Below, piece by piece: positions 743-44,556 of a DNA stretch of 64,000 nucleotides. Below the pieces are notes generated by a model. The model did not search any database and was not told the DNA's origin. It worked only from the letters and a program-made list of their open reading frames with translations. This DNA comes from an uncultured Candidatus Rokubacteria bacterium (GTDB lineage Bacteria > Methylomirabilota > Methylomirabilia > Rokubacteriales > CSP1-6), in NCBI GenBank assembly GCA_963762145.1, contig CAVXJS010000014.1:128001-192000 (forward strand), in the 5' to 3' direction. The stretch's first letter is position 1, and the number at the start of each line of letters is the position of its first letter. Position numbers and translations under genes: made by a program.

Positions 743-1660
743 ATGTCCCGACCGCTCCGGCTCCAGATTCCCGGCGGGATCTACCACGTCACCGCGCGCG
801 GGAATGCGCGCCGGGCGATCTTTGAGGACGACGACGACTGCGCCCGGTTTCTGACCGTCCTAGCGGGTACGGTCGCCCGCTATCGCGTGCTCTGTCACGC
901 CTACTGCCTCATGGGCAATCACTACCATCTGCTGGTGCAAACCCTGGAGGCCAATCTCTCCCTTGCGATGCGGCACCTCAACGGGGTGTACACGCAAGGA
1001 TTCAACCGGCGGCATGAGCGATGTGGTCATGTGCTGCAGGGTCGGTTCGCCGCTCAGCTGGTGGATGGGGATGCCTACCTACGGGAAGTCTGCCGCTACG
1101 TTGTGCTCAATCCGGTCAGGGCAGGCCTCGTCTCGCATCCCGGAGATTGGAAGTGGAGCAGCTTCCTCGCAACCGCAGGTCAGACGGCCGCGCCAGGGTT
1201 CCTCTCCGTGGAGTGGGTGCGAAACCTGAGCGGCGCCAGGACTCAGGCCGAGGCGATCCGGAGATTTGTCTCGTTCGTGGAAGCGGGAATCTCGGATCCC
1301 CGGAGCTTCATAGAGGTGTTAAGGGCGGAGCCGGTGTTGAGCCAAGCCTTGACCGAGCGGCTGGATGAGCGACGGCGCGTGTCAGGTGACTGCATCGAGT
1401 TTCCCCGCGCCCAGCGGTTTGCTTCAAGACCTCCGCTCGAACGGATCTTTCTGGGCATGACCTCCAAGGCCGACCGAAATTCGCGCGTGGCCCTGGCCGT
1501 TCGCGACCACGGATACACCATGCGCGAGGTAGCGGCGTTCCTCGGCCGTCACTACGCGACGATAAGCCGCGTCCTGGCGCAGACCGACGAGCATCGCATC
1601 GCGTCGCCTGACCGGGGCCAGAGTGCCGACAGCCTGGCGGCGACGGAAGAAATGTCGTAA
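743..1660 (+). CDS. REP-associated/Y1 (HuH) tyrosine transposase with C-terminal HTH
   Basis: YHVTARGN, MGNHYHLL (HuH), NPVRAGLV...WKWSS motifs; C-terminal YTMREVAAFLGRHYATISR helix-turn-helix. Confidence 0.9.
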   Translation: MSRPLRLQIPGGIYHVTARGNARRAIFEDDDDCARFLTVLAGTVARYRVLCHAYCLMGNHYHLLVQTLEANLSLAMRHLNGVYTQGFNRRHERCGHVLQGRFAAQLVDGDAYLREVCRYVVLNPVRAGLVSHPGDWKWSSFLATAGQTAAPGFLSVEWVRNLSGARTQAEAIRRFVSFVEAGISDPRSFIEVLRAEPVLSQALTERLDERRRVSGDCIEFPRAQRFASRPPLERIFLGMTSKADRNSRVALAVRDHGYTMREVAAFLGRHYATISRVLAQTDEHRIASPDRGQSADSLAATEEMS

Positions 1661-1676
1661 TTCAAGACCTGACCCC
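1649..1676 (-). repeat. Right terminal inverted repeat; contains the transposase TAA stop
   Basis: GAAATGTCGTAATTCAAGACCTGACCCC. Confidence 0.95.
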
Positions 1677-1679
1677 GAG

Positions 1680-3479
<1,800 letters not shown>

Positions 3480-5784: not shown

Positions 5785-6717
5785 CTAGGCGGGCCAGCGG
5801 TTGTCGCGGAGGTACTCGATCGCGGCCAGCGCGGCGGTGGCTCCGTCGCCGGCCGAGGTGACGAGCTGCCGCGCGGACTCGGCGCGCACGTCGCCCGCGG
5901 CGAGGATGCCCGGGACGCGGGTGCGCATGCGCAGGTCGGTCACGATCTGCCCGCGCGCGTCGAGCGGCACGAGCCCGCCCAGGAACTCGGTGTTGGGCGT
6001 GAGCCCCGCGTAGATGAACACCCCGCTGACGGGCACCGCGTCGGTCTTGCCGGTGGTCAGGTCCTCGACCTGCACGCGCTCGACGCCGTCGGCGCCCTCG
6101 ATCGCGCGCAGCGCGGCGTTCCAGCGGAAGGAGATCTTGCGCTCGCCGCGGCTCCGCTCCTGGAGGCTCGCGCAGGCGCGCAGGGTGTCGCGGCGGTGCA
6201 GCAGCGTCACCGAGGAGGCGTACTGGGTGAGATGGATCGCCTCGTCCACCGCCGCGTCGCCGCCCCCCACCACGATCACCGGCTTCTCCATGAAGAAGGA
6301 GCCGTCGCACGAGGCGCAGTGCGAGAGGCCGCGCCCGAGGAACTCCGCCTCGCCGGGCACGCCGAGCGTGGTGAAGCGCGAGCCGCTCGCGACGATCAGG
6401 GTGCTGGTGGTGTGGCTGCCACCGTCCGTGTCGATTCGCAGGAGGTCACCATCGCGGTGGACCGCGGTGACCTCGTTCATCGCGATCTCGAGGCCCGCCG
6501 CGGTGGCCTGCTCCTGGAGCAGCGGGCCCAGGGTGTAGCCGGCCACGCCCTGGGGGAAGCCGGGGAAGTTGGTGATGTGCTCGCAGTTGAGCACCTGGCC
6601 GCCGGAGGAGAACTTTTCGAGCAGCAGCGCGCGGCAGCGATCGCGGGCGGCGAAGATGCCGGCGGTGTAGCCGGCGGCCCCGCCGCCCACGATCAGGACG
6701 TCGAGGACGTCCGCCAT
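5785..6717 (-). CDS. trxB: Thioredoxin-disulfide reductase
   Basis: GGGAAG, GRGLSHCASCDG (CxxC), GGGDAAVDEA, AAGDVR. Confidence 0.9.
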   Translation of the reverse strand: MADVLDVLIVGGGAAGYTAGIFAARDRCRALLLEKFSSGGQVLNCEHITNFPGFPQGVAGYTLGPLLQEQATAAGLEIAMNEVTAVHRDGDLLRIDTDGGSHTTSTLIVASGSRFTTLGVPGEAEFLGRGLSHCASCDGSFFMEKPVIVVGGGDAAVDEAIHLTQYASSVTLLHRRDTLRACASLQERSRGERKISFRWNAALRAIEGADGVERVQVEDLTTGKTDAVPVSGVFIYAGLTPNTEFLGGLVPLDARGQIVTDLRMRTRVPGILAAGDVRAESARQLVTSAGDGATAALAAIEYLRDNRWPA

Positions 6718-6733: not shown

Positions 6734-7237
6734 CTACAGCTGCTTCAGCATCGAGTCGGCGTCGCTCACCTCGAACTTGCCGGGCGCCTCGACGTTCAGC
6801 GACTTCACCACGCCGTTGTCCAGCAGCATCGAGTAGCGCTGCGAGCGCACGCCCATCCCGCGGGCGGTGAGGTCCATCTCGAGGCCCATCGCCTTCGTGA
6901 GCGCGGCGCTGCCGTCGGCCATCATCCGGACCTTGCCGGTGCTCTTCTGATCCTTGGCCCACGCGCCCATCACGAAGGCGTCGTTGACCGACACGCACCA
7001 CACCTCGTCGACGCCCTTGCCCTTGAGCTTGTCGATGTTGGCCACGTAGCTCGGCACGTGCTTGGCCGAGCAGGTGGGGGTGAAGGCGCCCGGCAGGCCG
7101 AAGACCACGATCTTCTTGCCCTTGGTCAGGTCCGCGACCTGAAACGCGTTCGGGCCCACGGTGCAGCCCGGGGTCTCCTGCTCGATGAACTCCGTCAGCG
7201 TGCCGTCCGGCACGCGGTCACCAACTTTGATCGCCAT
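6734..7237 (-). CDS. Peroxiredoxin, Prx5/type II
   Basis: GLPGAFTPTCSAKHVP, SVNDAFVMGAW, RSQRYSM. Confidence 0.93.
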   Translation of the reverse strand: MAIKVGDRVPDGTLTEFIEQETPGCTVGPNAFQVADLTKGKKIVVFGLPGAFTPTCSAKHVPSYVANIDKLKGKGVDEVWCVSVNDAFVMGAWAKDQKSTGKVRMMADGSAALTKAMGLEMDLTARGMGVRSQRYSMLLDNGVVKSLNVEAPGKFEVSDADSMLKQL

Positions 7238-8289: not shown

Positions 8290-8627
8290 GCCCCGAGGCG
8301 AAGTATCTCTACCTGACCACGATCGGCCGGCGCAGCGGGCTTCCCCGACAGATCGAGATCTGGTTCACGCGCCGCGGAGGCCGCTACTACCTGGTGGCCG
8401 AGCATGGGCTGAAGGCGCACTGGGTGCAGAACCTCCTCGCGGAGCCCGCGGTGCGCGCGCGCGTCGGTCGCCGCTCGTTCGGCGGGCGAGCCCGGGTGGT
8501 GGATGCGCGGTCGGAGCGCGATCTGGTCGCCGCGGTCCGGGAGCGGTCGGAGGGCAAGTACGGCTGGGGCGCCGGCCTCGTCGTGGAGATCGCGCCGGCG
8601 GCGTCCCGGCGAGGCTCGTCGCGCTAG
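8286..8627 (+). CDS. Deazaflavin (F420)-dependent nitroreductase family, split beta-barrel
   Basis: YLYLTTIGRRSGLPR.IEIWF, WVQNLLAEPAVR; GTGA overlap with upstream stop. Confidence 0.75.
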   Translation: MSPEAKYLYLTTIGRRSGLPRQIEIWFTRRGGRYYLVAEHGLKAHWVQNLLAEPAVRARVGRRSFGGRARVVDARSERDLVAAVRERSEGKYGWGAGLVVEIAPAASRRGSSR

Positions 8628-10857
8628 CGCGTCGTCACGACCCGGATCAGCGCGCCGTCGGGCCGGGCCGGCGCGACCTCGCCGATGATCGCGGCAGCCT
8701 CGTCGCCCGCCGCGCGCAGCGCGCTCAGCATCGCCGAACTCCGCTCTCGCGGCACCGCGAGCAGCAGCCCTCCCGAGGTCTGGGGATCGAAGAGCAGGTC
8801 GAGCACCGCCCGGCGCGCCGCGTCCGGCTCCACGAGCATGGCCCGTCGCGCGCGAGCGTTCTCCGGATGCGCGGTGCTGCGGATGCCGCGGCCCAGCAGT
8901 GCCACCGCGCCGGGTAGCGCGGGAATCGCGGTGAGGTCGAGCAGCGCCGAGGCCTTGCTCGCGCGCAGCATCTCGCCCAGGTGCCCCGCCAGGCCGAAGC
9001 CGGTGACGTCGGTGGCGGCCGAGGGCCGCAACGGGATCATCGCGCGGGCGGCCGCCCCGTTGGAGCGAAGCATCGAGGCTGCGGTCGCCTCCACCCACTC
9101 GCCGCGCGCGAGCGCCCGCATGTCGGCCTGCAGGATCACACCGGTGCCGAGCGGCTTGGTCAGGATGAGCTGGTCCCCGGGCGCCGCGCCGCCGATGCGG
9201 ATCAGCGCATCGGCCGACGCCGCGAAGCCCCAGACCGCGAAGCCCACCACCAGCTCCGGCCCCGTGGTGGTGTGGCCGCCCACGAGCGTGACGCCGTCGG
9301 CATCCAGCGCGACCCGGGCTCCCGCCATCACCTGGTAGAGCGTCTCCTCCGCGCGCGCCGGCTCCGTTTCGGGCACACTCACCTGGGCCAGCGCGAAGCG
9401 TGGCGTCACCCCCTTGGCCCAGAGATCGCTGACCGCGTTGACCGCGGCGACGCGTCCGACCAGGTAGGGATCGTCCGCGAAGGCGCGGAACGAGTCGACG
9501 GTGGCCGCGACGATCTCGCCGCGCTCGGTCTCCACCGCGGCGGCATCGTCGGGCTGGGCCAGGCCCAGGACGACCGCGGGATGGCTCGGCACGCCGAGGC
9601 GCTCGAGCGCGCGGGTGAGGGAGGATTCACCCACCTTGGCCGCGCAGCCCCCGCAGAGCATGTCGCCGCCGGGCATCGTCGCCGCCGCGAAGTCCGGCGT
9701 GATCGCGCCGTCCCGATCGAGCACCTGGAAGCGGCGCACGAAGCGGCGGTCGATCCAGTCCTTCAACGAGAAGAGGACGCTCCCTTGGACCGACACGCCC
9801 CACTTGGTGCCGATGGCGCCGCCGTCGCCCAGGTTCAGCAGCGAGAGGAAGTCCCGCTGCGGGCGGTACGGGCGAAGGCGCGCGCCGCCGATCCTCGCCG
9901 TCAGGTTGTGCGCGAGCACCGGACCCTGGCGGACCGCGTAGACGCCGGCCTTGGCGAGGCCGGGGCCCGCTATCCACGCCGCGCAGTCGCCCACCGCGAA
10001 GACCTCGTCGTGCCCCACGCACTGCAGCGTCGGACGGATGCGCACGAAGCCGCCCTCGTCGGTCTCGAGCCCGGAGCCCTGGAAGATCGGCAGCGCGGCG
10101 GCGCCCGCCACCCAGACCACCGCGTCGGCGGGGAGCCGATCGCCGCCTTCCAGATGCACCGATCCGGTCTCGACCCGCGTCACGCGGGCGCCGGTGCGGA
10201 TCACGATCCCGCGTGCTCCGGCCGCGGCCTCGACGCGGGCGGCCGCGCTCGCCGCGTAGCCCGGCAGGACGCGGGGGCCGGACTCGAGCAGGAGCACCTT
10301 GACGCGCCCGCCGCGCCGCGGCCCCAGCCGGGCCGCGAGGGCGAAGGCCACCTCGACACCGCCCGCGCCCGCGCCGGCCACGACGAGGCGCGCGGCGTTG
10401 CGGGCCCGCGCGGCGGCCAGGAGCTCGTCCACGCGGCGGACGAACTCGCCGATCGGCCGCGTCGGGATCGCGTGCTCGCGAACGCCGGGCAGCTCGAGCC
10501 CGGCCACCGTCGAGCCCACGTCGAAGGACACGGTGTCGTACGCGATCGGCGGCCGGCCGTCCAGGACCAGGCGCCGCGCCCGGGTGTCGAGACCGGTGGC
10601 CGCCGTGATGATGCAGCGCGCTCCCGCACGCAGGGCGAGCGGACGCACGTCGATCTCGAGGTCGTCCCGCGAATACTGGCCGGCCACGAAGCCCGGCACC
10701 ATGCCGGAGTAGACGGCAACCGGCCGATCCACCACGAGGGTGAGGCGCGCACCGGGGACGGGCGTCATGGCCCAGCGCTTGAGCACCTGGATGTGGGCGT
10801 GGCCGCCGCCCACCAGGACCAGGTCGTGCCGGAAGGAGCCGCGGACGGCGAGCGCAT
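8624..10857 (-). CDS. selD: FAD-dependent oxidoreductase fused to selenophosphate synthetase (SelD)
   Basis: N-terminal DLVLVGGGHAH, YSGMVPG, KAGVYAVRQGP; C-terminal CGGCAAKV, PDDAA, GGHT, LTKPLGTG, ATDVTGFGLAGHL.EM, DPQTSGGLL; ATG at 10857 is out of frame with the body (probable indel). Confidence 0.88.
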
Positions 10858-41922: not shown

Positions 41923-42503
41923 CGCGGCTCCTGGCCGTCGTGGGCGCGGTGACGCCGCCGGGGCGCCTCGACGCGGCGGTGCGCTTCGCGGCCGACCGCG
42001 CGGCGGACCACGGAGGTGATCGGCGCGATATCTCCGCCACCGTCCTGAGCCTCGGCGCGCACCGCGTCTCCTTCGCGGACGGCCGCCCGCTCGACCGCTA
42101 TCCCGACGATACTGCGCGCGTCGTCGGCGCGATCGCCGAGGCCGACGCCGTGCTGCTCGCGAGCCCGGTCTACCGCGCCTCGTTCACCGGCGCGCTCAAG
42201 AACCTGCTCGATCTCACCCCGGTGGAGGCGCTGCGGGCCAAGCCGGTCGGGATCGTGGCGATGGGAGCGACGCTGCATCACTACCTGGGGGTGGACTGGC
42301 AGCTCCGCGCGGTGCTGGCCTGGTTCGGGGCGCTGGTGGCGCCGACCAGCGTCTACCTCGAGTCGGGCCACTTCCAGGACGGCCAGCTCACCGACCCGGC
42401 CGCACGAGCCGGCCTCGGCGACCTGGTCGGCGCGCTCGTCGCGATGGCGGGCTACCCCCGGGATCAGGCGGGCCCACCCCCATTGGCCGCAGGCCGCGGC
42501 TAG
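41919..42503 (+). CDS. NAD(P)H-dependent FMN reductase, SsuE/MsuE-like
   Basis: SPVYRASFTGALKNLLD; GTGA overlap. Confidence 0.85.
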   Translation: MTRLLAVVGAVTPPGRLDAAVRFAADRAADHGGDRRDISATVLSLGAHRVSFADGRPLDRYPDDTARVVGAIAEADAVLLASPVYRASFTGALKNLLDLTPVEALRAKPVGIVAMGATLHHYLGVDWQLRAVLAWFGALVAPTSVYLESGHFQDGQLTDPAARAGLGDLVGALVAMAGYPRDQAGPPPLAAGRG

Positions 42504-42537
42504 ACGCGCGCGCTAGGGTAGGCCTCGTTCGGGGCCT

Positions 42538-43095
42538 TCAAGGCCCCTTTCGATCAACCAGTCCGCGGATGACGTCGCGCGCGGCCTCGCTCTTCCAGTC
42601 GCGGCCGCCGACGATCCGGCCGACCAGACGCCCCTCGCGGTCGACCAGGTAGGCGGTGGGCGGTCCAAAGACGCCGTATGCCCGCCCGGTGAGGTCACCC
42701 GAGGCGTCGAGAAGCACCGGCGCGGTGTAGCCGCGGGCGGTCACCGTGCGCTTCACGATGTCCGCGCTCTCGCGAAAGGTGATCAGGAAGACGTCGAGCC
42801 CCTGTCCCTTGAATTCCTCGTAGAGCCGATTGACGGAAGGTAACTCCTCCCGGCAGGTCGTTCACCAGGTGGCCCAGAAGAACAGCAGCAGCGCCTTGCC
42901 CTTCTGGTCTTCGAGCTTCACGGTGCGGCCGTCGAGCGCGGGCAGGGCAAAGGCGGGCGCGGGGCGGGGCGACTCGTAGGCCTGGACGCCCATCTTTTCC
43001 CAGGCCGGCGGCGCGGCGGCGGGTTGCGCCGCCGCGGCCCCGGCCCAGAGCGCGGCCGCGATCAGGGTGACCGCGGCGAGCGGGCGCGCGCTCAC
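42538..43095 (-). CDS. TlpA/ResA-like thioredoxin-fold protein, putative selenoprotein (UxxC)
   Basis: APAFALP.LDG..V.L, FFWATW-TGA-TTCREELP, then PTAYLVDREG in the same frame; TGA at 42862-42864. Confidence 0.8.
42832..42859 (-). promoter_or_regulatory. Bacterial SECIS-like hairpin
   Basis: TGA + 9 nt + CGGGAGG-AGTTA-CCTTCCG. Confidence 0.6.
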
Positions 43096-43652
43096 GCGCC
43101 CGAGTCCTTGAGCGCCTTCAGCACCTCGGCCGGATCGAGCAGGTCGAGCGCATTGTCCTGGATCTTCATGAACCGGACCACGCCGTTCTTGTCGATCACG
43201 TAGTACGCGCGCTTGGCGTAGCGGAAGATCGGGCTCTTCTCGTCGGTGACCAGCGCGTCGTAGCCGGGCAGCATCGTGCGGCGGAAGTCGGACAGGAGGG
43301 GATAGCTGATCTTGTTCTGCTTGGTGAAGGCGTCCAGCGTGGCCGCGTGATCGGCGCTGATGCCCACGACCTGGGCGCCGGCGGCGGTGAACTGGGGCAA
43401 GGTCTCCTCGAAACCGAGGAGCTCCTTGGTTCAGGTATTGGTGAACGCCTGGATGAACGTGAAGACGACGACGGGGCCCTTGGCGGTCAGCTCGGACAGC
43501 TTGACCGGCTTGTTCCCCGGGCCCGGCAGGGTGAAATCGGGCGCTTTCTGGCCAACTTCCAGGGCCGCGGCCGGGCCGGCCGAGCCGAGGACGGCGACGC
43601 CCAGGCCGATCAGCAGCAGGGCCGCGATCAGCAGGGGAGTGATTCGACGCAT
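43092..43652 (-). CDS. Peroxiredoxin (BCP/AhpC-like) redoxin, putative selenoprotein (TxxU)
   Basis: Signal peptide, VGQKAPDFTLP, AFTNT-TGA-TKEL, then GISAD, YPLLSD, AKRAYYVIDK.G in frame; TGA at 43431-43433. Confidence 0.82.
43399..43427 (-). promoter_or_regulatory. Bacterial SECIS-like hairpin
   Basis: TGA + 9 nt + CTCCTCG-GTTT-CGAGGAG with lower AAGG/CCTT stem. Confidence 0.68.
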
Positions 43653-43739
43653 GGCGCTCTCCTTTCGAGGGTCGAGGGTGACACCCACACAACGAGCGGC
43701 GGGCTCCCGAAGTTTCCAGGCCACGCGCATAATGCTCGC

Positions 43740-44556
43740 ATGAATCGGTCGGTCGCTGCAGAGGCTATCGTCCCGGACCGGATGGCCTGGCGGATCCACC
43801 GGGAGCGGGTGCTGCTGGCCGGCTGGGGCCGGGCCATCCTGCTGCAGATCGCCCACCCGAAAGTGGCGCGCGGGGTGGCCGAGCACAGCGGGTTCGCCAG
43901 CGACCGGTGGGGGCGGCTCCGGCGGCTGCGGCGCACGCTGACCGCGATGCTCGCGCTGACCTTTGGCTCGGAGGCGGAGGCCGCGGCCTCGGCCGCGCGG
44001 ATCAATGCCATCCACGACCGCGTGCACGACCGGCTCGAGGGGCCGGAGGCGTACAGCGCGCACGATCCCGAGCTCGCTCACCTGGGTGCACGCCACCCTG
44101 GTCGAGTCATTCCTGCTGACCTACCGCCTCTTCGTGGGACCGGTGACGAGCGAGGAAGGCGATCGGTACTGCGCGGAGGCCGCCGGCATCGAGCCGGCGC
44201 TCGGCATCCCGCCGGGCCGGCTCCCGCGGACGGAGCGCGCGCTCCGCGAGTATCTGGACGGGATGCTGGCGGGCGGCTCGATCGAGGTGACCGACACCGC
44301 CCGGCGCCTCTCGCTCGAGATCATCAGGCCGCCCGCTCCGGCGATTCTCCGGCCCGCGCTCTGGCTGGCCGCGCTGCCGGCCGTCGGCCTCCTGCCCCCC
44401 TCGATCCGCGAGGCCTACGGGTTCCGGTGGAGTGACGGCCGGGCGCGGGCGCTTGGCGTGCTGGCCGCCGTGACGCGCGGGAGCCTCCCGCTGACGCCGC
44501 CGGGTCTTCGCTACTGGGCGGTGGCGCGCCGGGCGGAGCGGCGGGTGCGGCGGTGA
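43740..44556 (+). CDS. DUF2236/MpaB-like oxygenase-family protein; frameshift near 44075
   Basis: GRAILLQIAHP.VA.GV.EHS.F, IN.IHDRV, YSA.DPELL.WVHATL. Confidence 0.8.

Follow-up and report, generated by a model that had tools for sequence, protein, structure and literature searches.

Two adjacent genes in a 64,000-nucleotide stretch of an uncultured Candidatus Rokubacteria genome (a soil bacterium of the phylum Methylomirabilota; contig CAVXJS010000014.1, positions 128,001 to 192,000; this whole stretch is called the window below) each contain an in-frame TGA at the codon of a catalytic residue, which raises the question of whether they are two interrupted genes or a pair of selenoprotein genes, and, if the latter, what the two products do together. 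The best explanation, to which we give a probability of roughly 0.7, is a self-contained two-gene operon for two selenoproteins, decoded with selenocysteine (Sec, U), exported, and forming a redox relay. The pair lies on the minus strand. Gene 1 (43652..43092; coding 43652..43095, stop TGA 43094..43092) starts with ATG and encodes a predicted BCP/PrxQ-like selenoprotein of the AhpC/TSA family, 186 residues long when TGA is read as U; its candidate Sec codon is codon 74 (43431..43433), which places U74 within the motif FTNT-U-TKE. An AAGGAG resembling a Shine-Dalgarno sequence can be read at 43659..43664, 6 nt 5' of the ATG. Gene 2 (42538..43095, stop TGA 42540..42538) starts with GTG at 43095..43093, overlapping the stop of gene 1 in the tetranucleotide GTGA (43095..43092), and encodes a predicted 185-residue TlpA/ResA-like thiol:disulfide oxidoreductase selenoprotein. 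Its candidate Sec codon, codon 78 (42862..42864), takes the first position of a UxxC motif in the active site W-A-T-W-U78-T-T-C81. The initial annotation of this DNA had described such a GTGA-overlapped pair, and its coordinates and motifs proved exact in the sequence.

That annotation had also stated that each gene appears split by one TGA while both frames run on to complete a thioredoxin fold. A mechanical list of open reading frames (ORFs) indeed cuts each gene at its TGA, and a single Pfam AhpC-TSA match crosses that TGA in both cases (gene 1, 5.5e-30, residues 33-161; gene 2, 6.9e-25, residues 45-157), with further matches of gene 2 to Redoxin and Thioredoxin_8. A six-frame scan of the window for TGA codons with 45 or more open codons on each side and a coding-like G+C content at third codon positions returned four sites. 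Two of these are the TGAs of gene 1 and gene 2, and the other two resemble ordinary gene ends; because the scan gives so few sites and includes these two, the in-frame TGA pattern is beyond chance. Both genes terminate with TGA as well. Judged from these comparisons and those that follow, both are genuine selenoprotein genes, and the observation is correct.

The machinery for Sec insertion, on which the initial annotation had made its proposal depend, is encoded in the genome: selA (577 bits), selB (363 bits, adjoining selA), two copies of selD, and one tRNA-Sec (69.3 bits, above the Rfam gathering score), which ARAGORN types as SeC with anticodon tca. All four exceed their family cut-offs; contig C9 carries selA, selB and tRNA-Sec in a cluster, and one of the selD copies (C11:419505-420437) itself has an in-frame TGA. 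ARAGORN found 68 tRNAs in the whole genome, among which tRNA-Sec is the only one with a UCA anticodon and tRNA-Trp has the anticodon CCA. TGA is also the commonest stop codon of the window, ending 24 of its 38 coding-like ORFs. Together, these three observations exclude a genome-wide change of the code. One of the tRNAs predicted by ARAGORN has a four-base anticodon (atgg) and no amino acid assigned.

Conservation of the two TGAs was examined in 61 genomes, comprising that of the window and 60 relatives. A match to gene 1 was found in 59 of the 61 at E<=1e-10, and a match to gene 2 in 60 at E<=1e-25. At the stricter threshold of E<=1e-56, gene 1 has 50 matching places in 45 genomes, and each of the 50 contains exactly one TGA. 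From these relatives we assembled a set of 40 loci (the 20 best and 20 more distant ones, drawn from two families of the order), and in both genes the TGA column is identical in all 40, while Cys homologues carry Cys at that column. Selection was measured on the two sides of the TGA as the ratio of nonsynonymous to synonymous substitution rates (dN/dS), with medians taken over 780 pairwise comparisons. For gene 1 the ratio is 0.37 upstream and 0.31 downstream, and for gene 2 it is 0.45 upstream and 0.34 downstream, so that the downstream halves are constrained at least as strongly as the upstream halves; the purifying selection past the TGA that a functional gene should exhibit is thus present. 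Of 151 genomes sampled evenly across the phylum, 84 have a gene 1 orthologue (E<=1e-35), including 68 of 93 genomes in family f1, 10 of 11 in f4 and 5 of 7 in f11, and none was found at that threshold in the sampled members of f7 (0/18) or f8 (0/12). Among the matches listed for this sample, 98 of 100 gene 1 places have one TGA; of the two that lack it, one (G074:C79) is a full-length Cys form and the other a partial match that leaves the site uncovered. These tallies include the unpublished genomes G029, G107 and G143, and dropping them makes no substantive change.

On this evidence UGA is almost certainly decoded as Sec in both genes (codons 74 and 78, respectively), and two other readings of the codon can be weighed against it. 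If the TGAs were true stops, the locus would hold pseudogenes or four small genes in their own right, or the TGAs would be errors of sequencing or assembly. Standard gene calling does split both genes, and the fragments sit in public databases; but the same codon is TGA in all 40 loci, from about 37 independent assemblies, which makes a sequencing error untenable, the downstream halves are no less constrained than the upstream halves, single Pfam domains span the TGAs, and the catalytic residue would have to vanish exactly where Cys homologues have their Cys. From these comparisons, we consider that the true-stop reading is effectively refuted. The UGA might instead be read as Trp, Gly or Cys, through a code change or through read-through independent of a selenocysteine insertion sequence (SECIS), and some public protein calls of the gene 1 family (P0003, P0005-P0008 and P0011) do have W at the Sec position. 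However, with the exception of P0011, these calls put W at the terminal TGA too and extend into the following gene, which indicates that a TGA=Trp code was wrongly applied to short metagenome contigs. The role of TGA as an ordinary stop in the window, the tRNA complement, the full set of Sec genes and the coincidence of the UGA with a redox-active Cys position likewise speak against decoding as another amino acid, and this alternative appears highly improbable.

The public records also bear on the expectation, raised in the initial annotation, that gene callers would miss such genes. Public proteins related to gene 1 are mostly C-terminal fragments of 102-113 residues, named 'redoxin domain-containing protein' and in many cases derived from Methylomirabilota metagenome-assembled genomes (MAGs); with the W-at-TGA translations just described, they make the mis-annotation of the gene 1 family systematic, as fragments or as code-4 translations with W at both TGAs. 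For gene 2, mis-annotation was examined in the ORF track of the window, where the gene is split at its TGA. As a consequence, every analysis of this abundant soil phylum that builds on the annotation misses the catalytic residue.

Sec insertion in bacteria is expected to leave a trace in the mRNA: the bSECISearch criterion calls for a downstream stem-loop with a G in its apical loop and a spacing of about 16-37 nt. Both window genes have a SECIS-like hairpin on the coding strand, and both apical loops begin 16 nt past the UGA. The candidate of gene 1 (43398..43428), taken from the minimum-free-energy fold, has an upper stem CUCCUCG/CGAGGAG, a GUUU loop and a lower stem CAAGG/CCUUG; that of gene 2 (42834..42852) reads CGGGAGG-AGUUA-CCUUCCG. 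The gene 2 hairpin was found in all 38 distinct orthologous sequences, and 96.6% of its cells pair; shifting the 3' partner by 1 to 3 columns lowers this share to 55-69%. Of the seven pairs, five are invariant, and one occurs as G-U (20 sequences), G-C (13) or A-U (5) and is never broken. Within the hairpin, Leu is encoded by UUA or UUG in 37 of the 38 sequences and Pro by CCU in all 38, against a background, in the 38 ORFs of the window, of 1.4% UUR among Leu codons and 1.9% CCU among Pro codons. The gene 1 element is more varied in form. In the closest subgroup, all 8 distinct sequences share its 7-bp hairpin (-10.6 kcal/mol); CCGGGC-UGGAC-GCCCGG takes its place in the most distant one, 19 nt past the UGA; and intermediate sequences form a longer hairpin (-20 to -28 kcal/mol) whose loop is found roughly 30 nt downstream. 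An Rfam scan of 42400-43750 at E<=10 gave three chance-level matches and no SECIS family. Hairpin free energy was also considered as a means of separating Sec from Cys paralogues, and was set aside as uninformative at 71% G+C.

Gene 1 is, by profile and structure comparison, a BCP/PrxQ-like member of the AhpC/TSA family. The nearest solved structures are the archaeal BCPs 2ywn and 2cx3 (E 1e-25), and U74 aligns with the peroxidatic Cys of both. We aligned 42 gene 1 sequences, 39 of them Sec forms and three Cys forms. U74 (Cys in the three Cys forms), E77 and R148 are invariant in all 42 rows, and R148 aligns with the active-site Arg of the AKRA motif of BCPs. The window's gene 1 protein contains no Cys at all, and the mature part of each of the 39 Sec forms has neither a Cys nor a second Sec. 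Gene 1 Sec forms should thus be one-Sec enzymes with no resolving residue, in need of an external reductant. The window's own protein retains the Thr of the peroxiredoxin (Prx) motif (T71), and so has T-x-x-U. True Cys homologues of gene 1 exist among public proteins (P0014, P0016 and P0027, 51-56% identity, with Cys in the U74 column), and, like the Sec forms, the Cys homologues have no Pro at the motif position. We therefore rejected the idea that a Prx motif can do without its Pro and Thr because of Sec: Cys homologues of the clade lack the Pro as well, so its loss is a trait of the clade and not of Sec use.

In comparisons of the gene 2 protein with the Protein Data Bank, U78 occupies the column of the first CxxC Cys in 3kcm, ResA and TlpA, and the active site as a whole aligns with FWATWCPPCREE of 3kcm and also with that of ResA. 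All 39 aligned rows share W74, W77, U78, C81, R82 and P146, and the last of these, in a G-x-P-T loop, is probably the cis-Pro, to go by the alignment with ResA. Against curated NCBIfam models the gene 2 protein scores 95.2 bits for ResA (4.1e-27; cut-off 170), 75.8 for TlpA (3.9e-21; cut-off 230), 54.4 for WAxxUGC_long (cut-off 300) and 30.7 for SelL_rel_redox (cut-off 120). Since it stays below the ResA, TlpA and WAxxUGC_long cut-offs, we place it in the broad fold family and not in those subfamilies.

Both proteins begin with the hydrophobic, signal-like segment that the initial annotation had noted, in which basic residues precede 18-19 uncharged hydrophobic residues and an Ala-rich A-x-A. 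In gene 1, residues 1-30 (43563..43652) resemble a signal peptide, with MRR, an 18-residue hydrophobic core and AAA followed by LEVGQKAPDF; the solved cytoplasmic BCPs align with the protein only from residue 31 onward, and the A-x-A ahead of LEVGQ is conserved among orthologues. Residues 1-23 of gene 2 (43027..43095) form a signal- or anchor-like hydrophobic stretch that leads into a Pro/Ala-rich linker, and its orthologues retain hydrophobic N-termini. TlpA homologues are membrane-anchored. Export of both proteins is therefore probable on the strength of these N-termini. The arrangement of the two genes is also maintained: a comparison by hand of the lists of matching places put a gene 2 match next to gene 1 at 47 of the 50 gene 1 places, in at least two families. 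In the window, the pair is flanked on one side by convergent genes for a luciferase-like monooxygenase and a flavin mononucleotide (FMN) reductase, and on the other by divergent genes for an MpaB-like oxygenase and a GNAT acetyltransferase. When 5 kb of flank was compared at eight other loci, the FMN reductase and MpaB neighbors recurred within the genus only and the other neighbors varied. As the flanking genes change beyond the genus, the conserved unit is the gene pair itself. A scan of 42350-43950 for sigma-70 promoters and intrinsic terminators found none of either.

The pair also has relatives in which Sec and Cys are differently distributed. Elsewhere in the same genome, outside the window (C14:43755-44884), a Sec-Prx-like gene with a signal-like N-terminus (FSPT-U-AANL) is followed by a Cys-type TlpA-like gene (WASWCLEC), and similar Sec/Cys modules occur at no fewer than 10 places among the matches listed. 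The reverse combination is found at locus L077 (G074:C79:21000-24500; about 910-1988, minus strand), where a full-length Cys form of gene 1 (ANKT-C-IDE) precedes a Sec form of gene 2 (WTTW-U-PDC). Same-genome paralogues of gene 2 have Cys at the U78 site in the contexts WASWCLEC, WATWCGYC and WATWCEPC. The genome of the window has 28 AhpC-TSA matches in total, eight of them with an internal TGA. Five further AhpC/TSA-type genes with a TGA at the redox site lie at C14:214091-214459, C9:814528-814893, C14:638634-639074, C11:835104-835391 and C19:141193-141519, and among them are a canonical P-x-x-x-T-x-x-U BCP and one gene each of the W-U-P-Y-C and WASW-U-G-C types. The Sec/Cys and Cys/Sec versions found in this lineage amount to natural swap experiments on the benefit of selenium to each partner, and with the Sec/Sec pair they offer a ready comparison for asking why Sec is retained over Cys.

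How the two proteins might act can be outlined as follows. SelB carrying Sec-tRNA(Sec) would recognize the hairpin whose loop begins 16 nt past the UGA, and Sec would be inserted at codons 74 and 78; the terminal UGAs, which have no such hairpin, would act as stops. Both products would then be exported, or anchored outside the cytoplasmic membrane, by means of their signal-like N-termini. There, the U74 selenolate of the gene 1 protein would be oxidized to a selenenic acid by a peroxide or some other oxidant, U78 of the gene 2 protein would attack the gene 1 intermediate, and C81 would resolve the mixed species, leaving an internal U78-C81 selenenylsulfide. The gene 2 protein may in turn be re-reduced by a membrane electron transporter of the CcdA/DsbD type, for which the two DsbD_TM genes found elsewhere in the genome are candidates. 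We regard the odds that the two proteins form a functional relay as evenly balanced; this inference draws on the signal-like N-termini, the conservation of the operon and an analogy with the TlpA-PprX pathway of Caulobacter. An all-selenium extracytoplasmic relay that passes through an intermolecular U74-U78 diselenide is a more tentative proposal, and we consider it doubtful.

Several observations weigh against the reading of the pair as a Sec-decoded peroxide relay. At the RNA level, the gene 2 hairpin shows no significant covariation (its score is reached by 54 of 500 shuffles), and the frozen rare codons are a better argument for RNA-level constraint on this hairpin than covariation. RNAalifold gave no common structure over 32 gene 1 sequences, and under a strict bulge-free model 10 of the 32 have no qualifying hairpin, these ten folding into another long hairpin. 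A qualifying hairpin of <= -8 kcal/mol also follows 13% of 8120 control codons in this window of 71% G+C, so hairpin stability alone proves little. At the protein level, the Pro of PxxxTxxC(U), at position -7, is absent from the gene 1 family: the column holds I in 39 rows and L, M and V in one row each, and the window's protein has a one-residue gap relative to the motif Pro of the solved BCPs. The motif Thr at -3 is T in 29 of the 42 rows, S in one, A in four and N in eight. With the Prx motif incomplete in this way, peroxidase activity is uncertain. At the genomic level, three of the 50 gene 1 places (G012:C462, G034:C85 and G025:C102), all of an FTPT-U subtype, have no TlpA-like neighbor; in two of these genomes, G034 and G025, a Sec-TlpA-like gene stands on a separate contig with no Prx-like neighbor. 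No gene for a DsbD/CcdA membrane reductase was found beside the pair in the window or at the eight other loci. The genome has two DsbD_TM genes (C11:410104 and C19:150199), neither of them near the pair, and each adjoins a Cys-type TlpA-like or AhpC-like gene. Finally, the existence of Sec/Cys and Cys/Sec versions of the pair implies that Sec in one partner is not required by the other.

Some of these points fit the main rival account, in which both proteins are genuine selenoproteins that do not form a peroxide relay and are co-transcribed for a shared compartment or regulon. The TlpA-like protein might then serve in the reductive maturation of copper or cytochrome proteins or in the repair of oxidized envelope proteins, and the Prx-like protein would be a one-Sec thiol/selenol oxidoreductase acting on another substrate. 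The incomplete Prx tetrad, without its Pro and with T or S at the Thr position in only 30 of 42 rows, is in keeping with such an account, as are the failure of either protein to reach any curated NCBIfam cut-off and the three gene 1-like places without an adjacent gene 2, in two of whose genomes the genes lie on different contigs. In addition, a study of Caulobacter describes a Prx-like protein, PrxL, without detectable peroxidase activity (PMC3322552). However, the two genes stay adjacent at 47 of 50 places in at least two families, with a changing set of other neighbors, and the same genomes contain further, paralogous modules of Prx-like and TlpA-like genes. No variation occurs at Arg148 or at the Sec of the peroxidatic position, the best structural relatives are true BCP peroxidases, and an enzyme free of Cys needs a dedicated external reductant. 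We consequently judge co-transcription without a relay unlikely, and favor the exported Sec-Prx-like/TlpA-like relay as the explanation of the pair.

Other features of the region deserve mention in their own right. The divergent MpaB/Lcp-like oxygenase gene (43740-44556, plus strand) is split over two reading frames, with Pfam positions 1-77 in one and 82-230 in the other and an overlap of the ORFs at about 43963-44030; its orthologue at L070 is one intact ORF of 277 aa, and the split may reflect either a frameshift or an assembly error. At 8627-10813 (minus strand), the window encodes a 729-aa fusion of Pyr_redox_2 (NADH dehydrogenase-like) and SelD with no internal TGA, which adjoins a thioredoxin-reductase-like gene and a Redoxin gene (5788-6717 and 6737-7237, both on the minus strand). 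Ndh-SelD fusions are described in a Global Ocean Sampling (GOS) study (PMC2398784). In three genomes of a sister family (loci L065, L067 and L071 in G048, G057 and G052), the pair has as its neighbor a gene for a protein of 1290-1367 aa in which a sigma-54 activator is joined to an AAA_16 ATPase, a helix-turn-helix domain and TPR repeats.

The founding experimental member of the Sec-Prx family is PrxU of Eubacterium acidaminophilum. Gene 1 resembles this family in its AhpC/TSA fold, in having Sec at the position of the peroxidatic Cys, in keeping the active-site Arg and, for the window's own protein, in a T-x-x-U motif. As distinct from the family, it lacks the Pro of PxxxTxxU, has A or N in place of Thr in 12 of 42 rows, has no resolving Cys and bears a 30-residue signal-like N-terminal extension; its score against the curated PrxU model (peroxi_PrxU, NCBIfam NF040737) is 29.5 bits and does not reach the cut-off of 270. 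Gene 2, in turn, shares with the Prx-like 1 and thiol-disulfide isomerase-like selenoproteins a TlpA/ResA-like thioredoxin fold with Sec first in UxxC. It differs from WAxxUGC_long and SelL_rel_redox proteins as a distinct clade below both cut-offs, and from Prx-like 1 selenoproteins in its constant place after a Sec-Prx-like gene in one operon.

Selenium use is established for both enzyme types, so the pair, though real, is not new in kind. A review (PMC13188914) lists among known selenoprotein families Prx (PF00578, TxxU), Prx-like thiol:disulfide oxidoreductase (PF00578, UxxC), thiol-disulfide isomerase-like (cd02966, UxxC) and UGC-containing TlpA-family selenoproteins, and it refers to a MAG from Methylomirabilota for which 63 selenoprotein genes were predicted. 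The GOS study likewise places Prx and Prx-like 1 among the most abundant selenoprotein families (PMC2398784). With both families known since 2004-2008 and the selenoprotein richness of Methylomirabilota in print, the discovery is incremental. Side-by-side pairs of thioredoxin-fold selenoprotein genes have also been published; in the available portions of those reports their arrangement is like the one seen here, suggesting a shared redox process, and the named pairs differ from the combination of Prx (TxxU) and TlpA-like (UxxC). A literature search found no description of this Sec-Prx-like/TlpA-like pair; supplements and part of the literature lay outside the search, and a description may exist there.

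The closest functional parallel is the envelope peroxide-reduction pathway of Caulobacter crescentus, in which electrons pass from ScsB to TlpA to PprX, as shown experimentally (Cho et al. 2012, PMC3322552). In that work, the exported BCP/PrxQ-type PprX is reduced by an exported TlpA that is fed by the DsbD-family protein ScsB, and the order proposed here for the two window proteins would be alike. The Caulobacter proteins, as described there, are Cys-based, PprX has the full Pro/Thr/Cys/Arg set together with a resolving Cys, and its gene (CC1673) is not adjacent to tlpA (CC2210). The Rokubacteria pair differs in that both catalytic residues are predicted to be Sec, the Prx-like partner is free of Cys and the genes appear to be translationally coupled. 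If the relay is real, it would be the selenium counterpart of the only characterized bacterial cell-envelope peroxide-reduction pathway.

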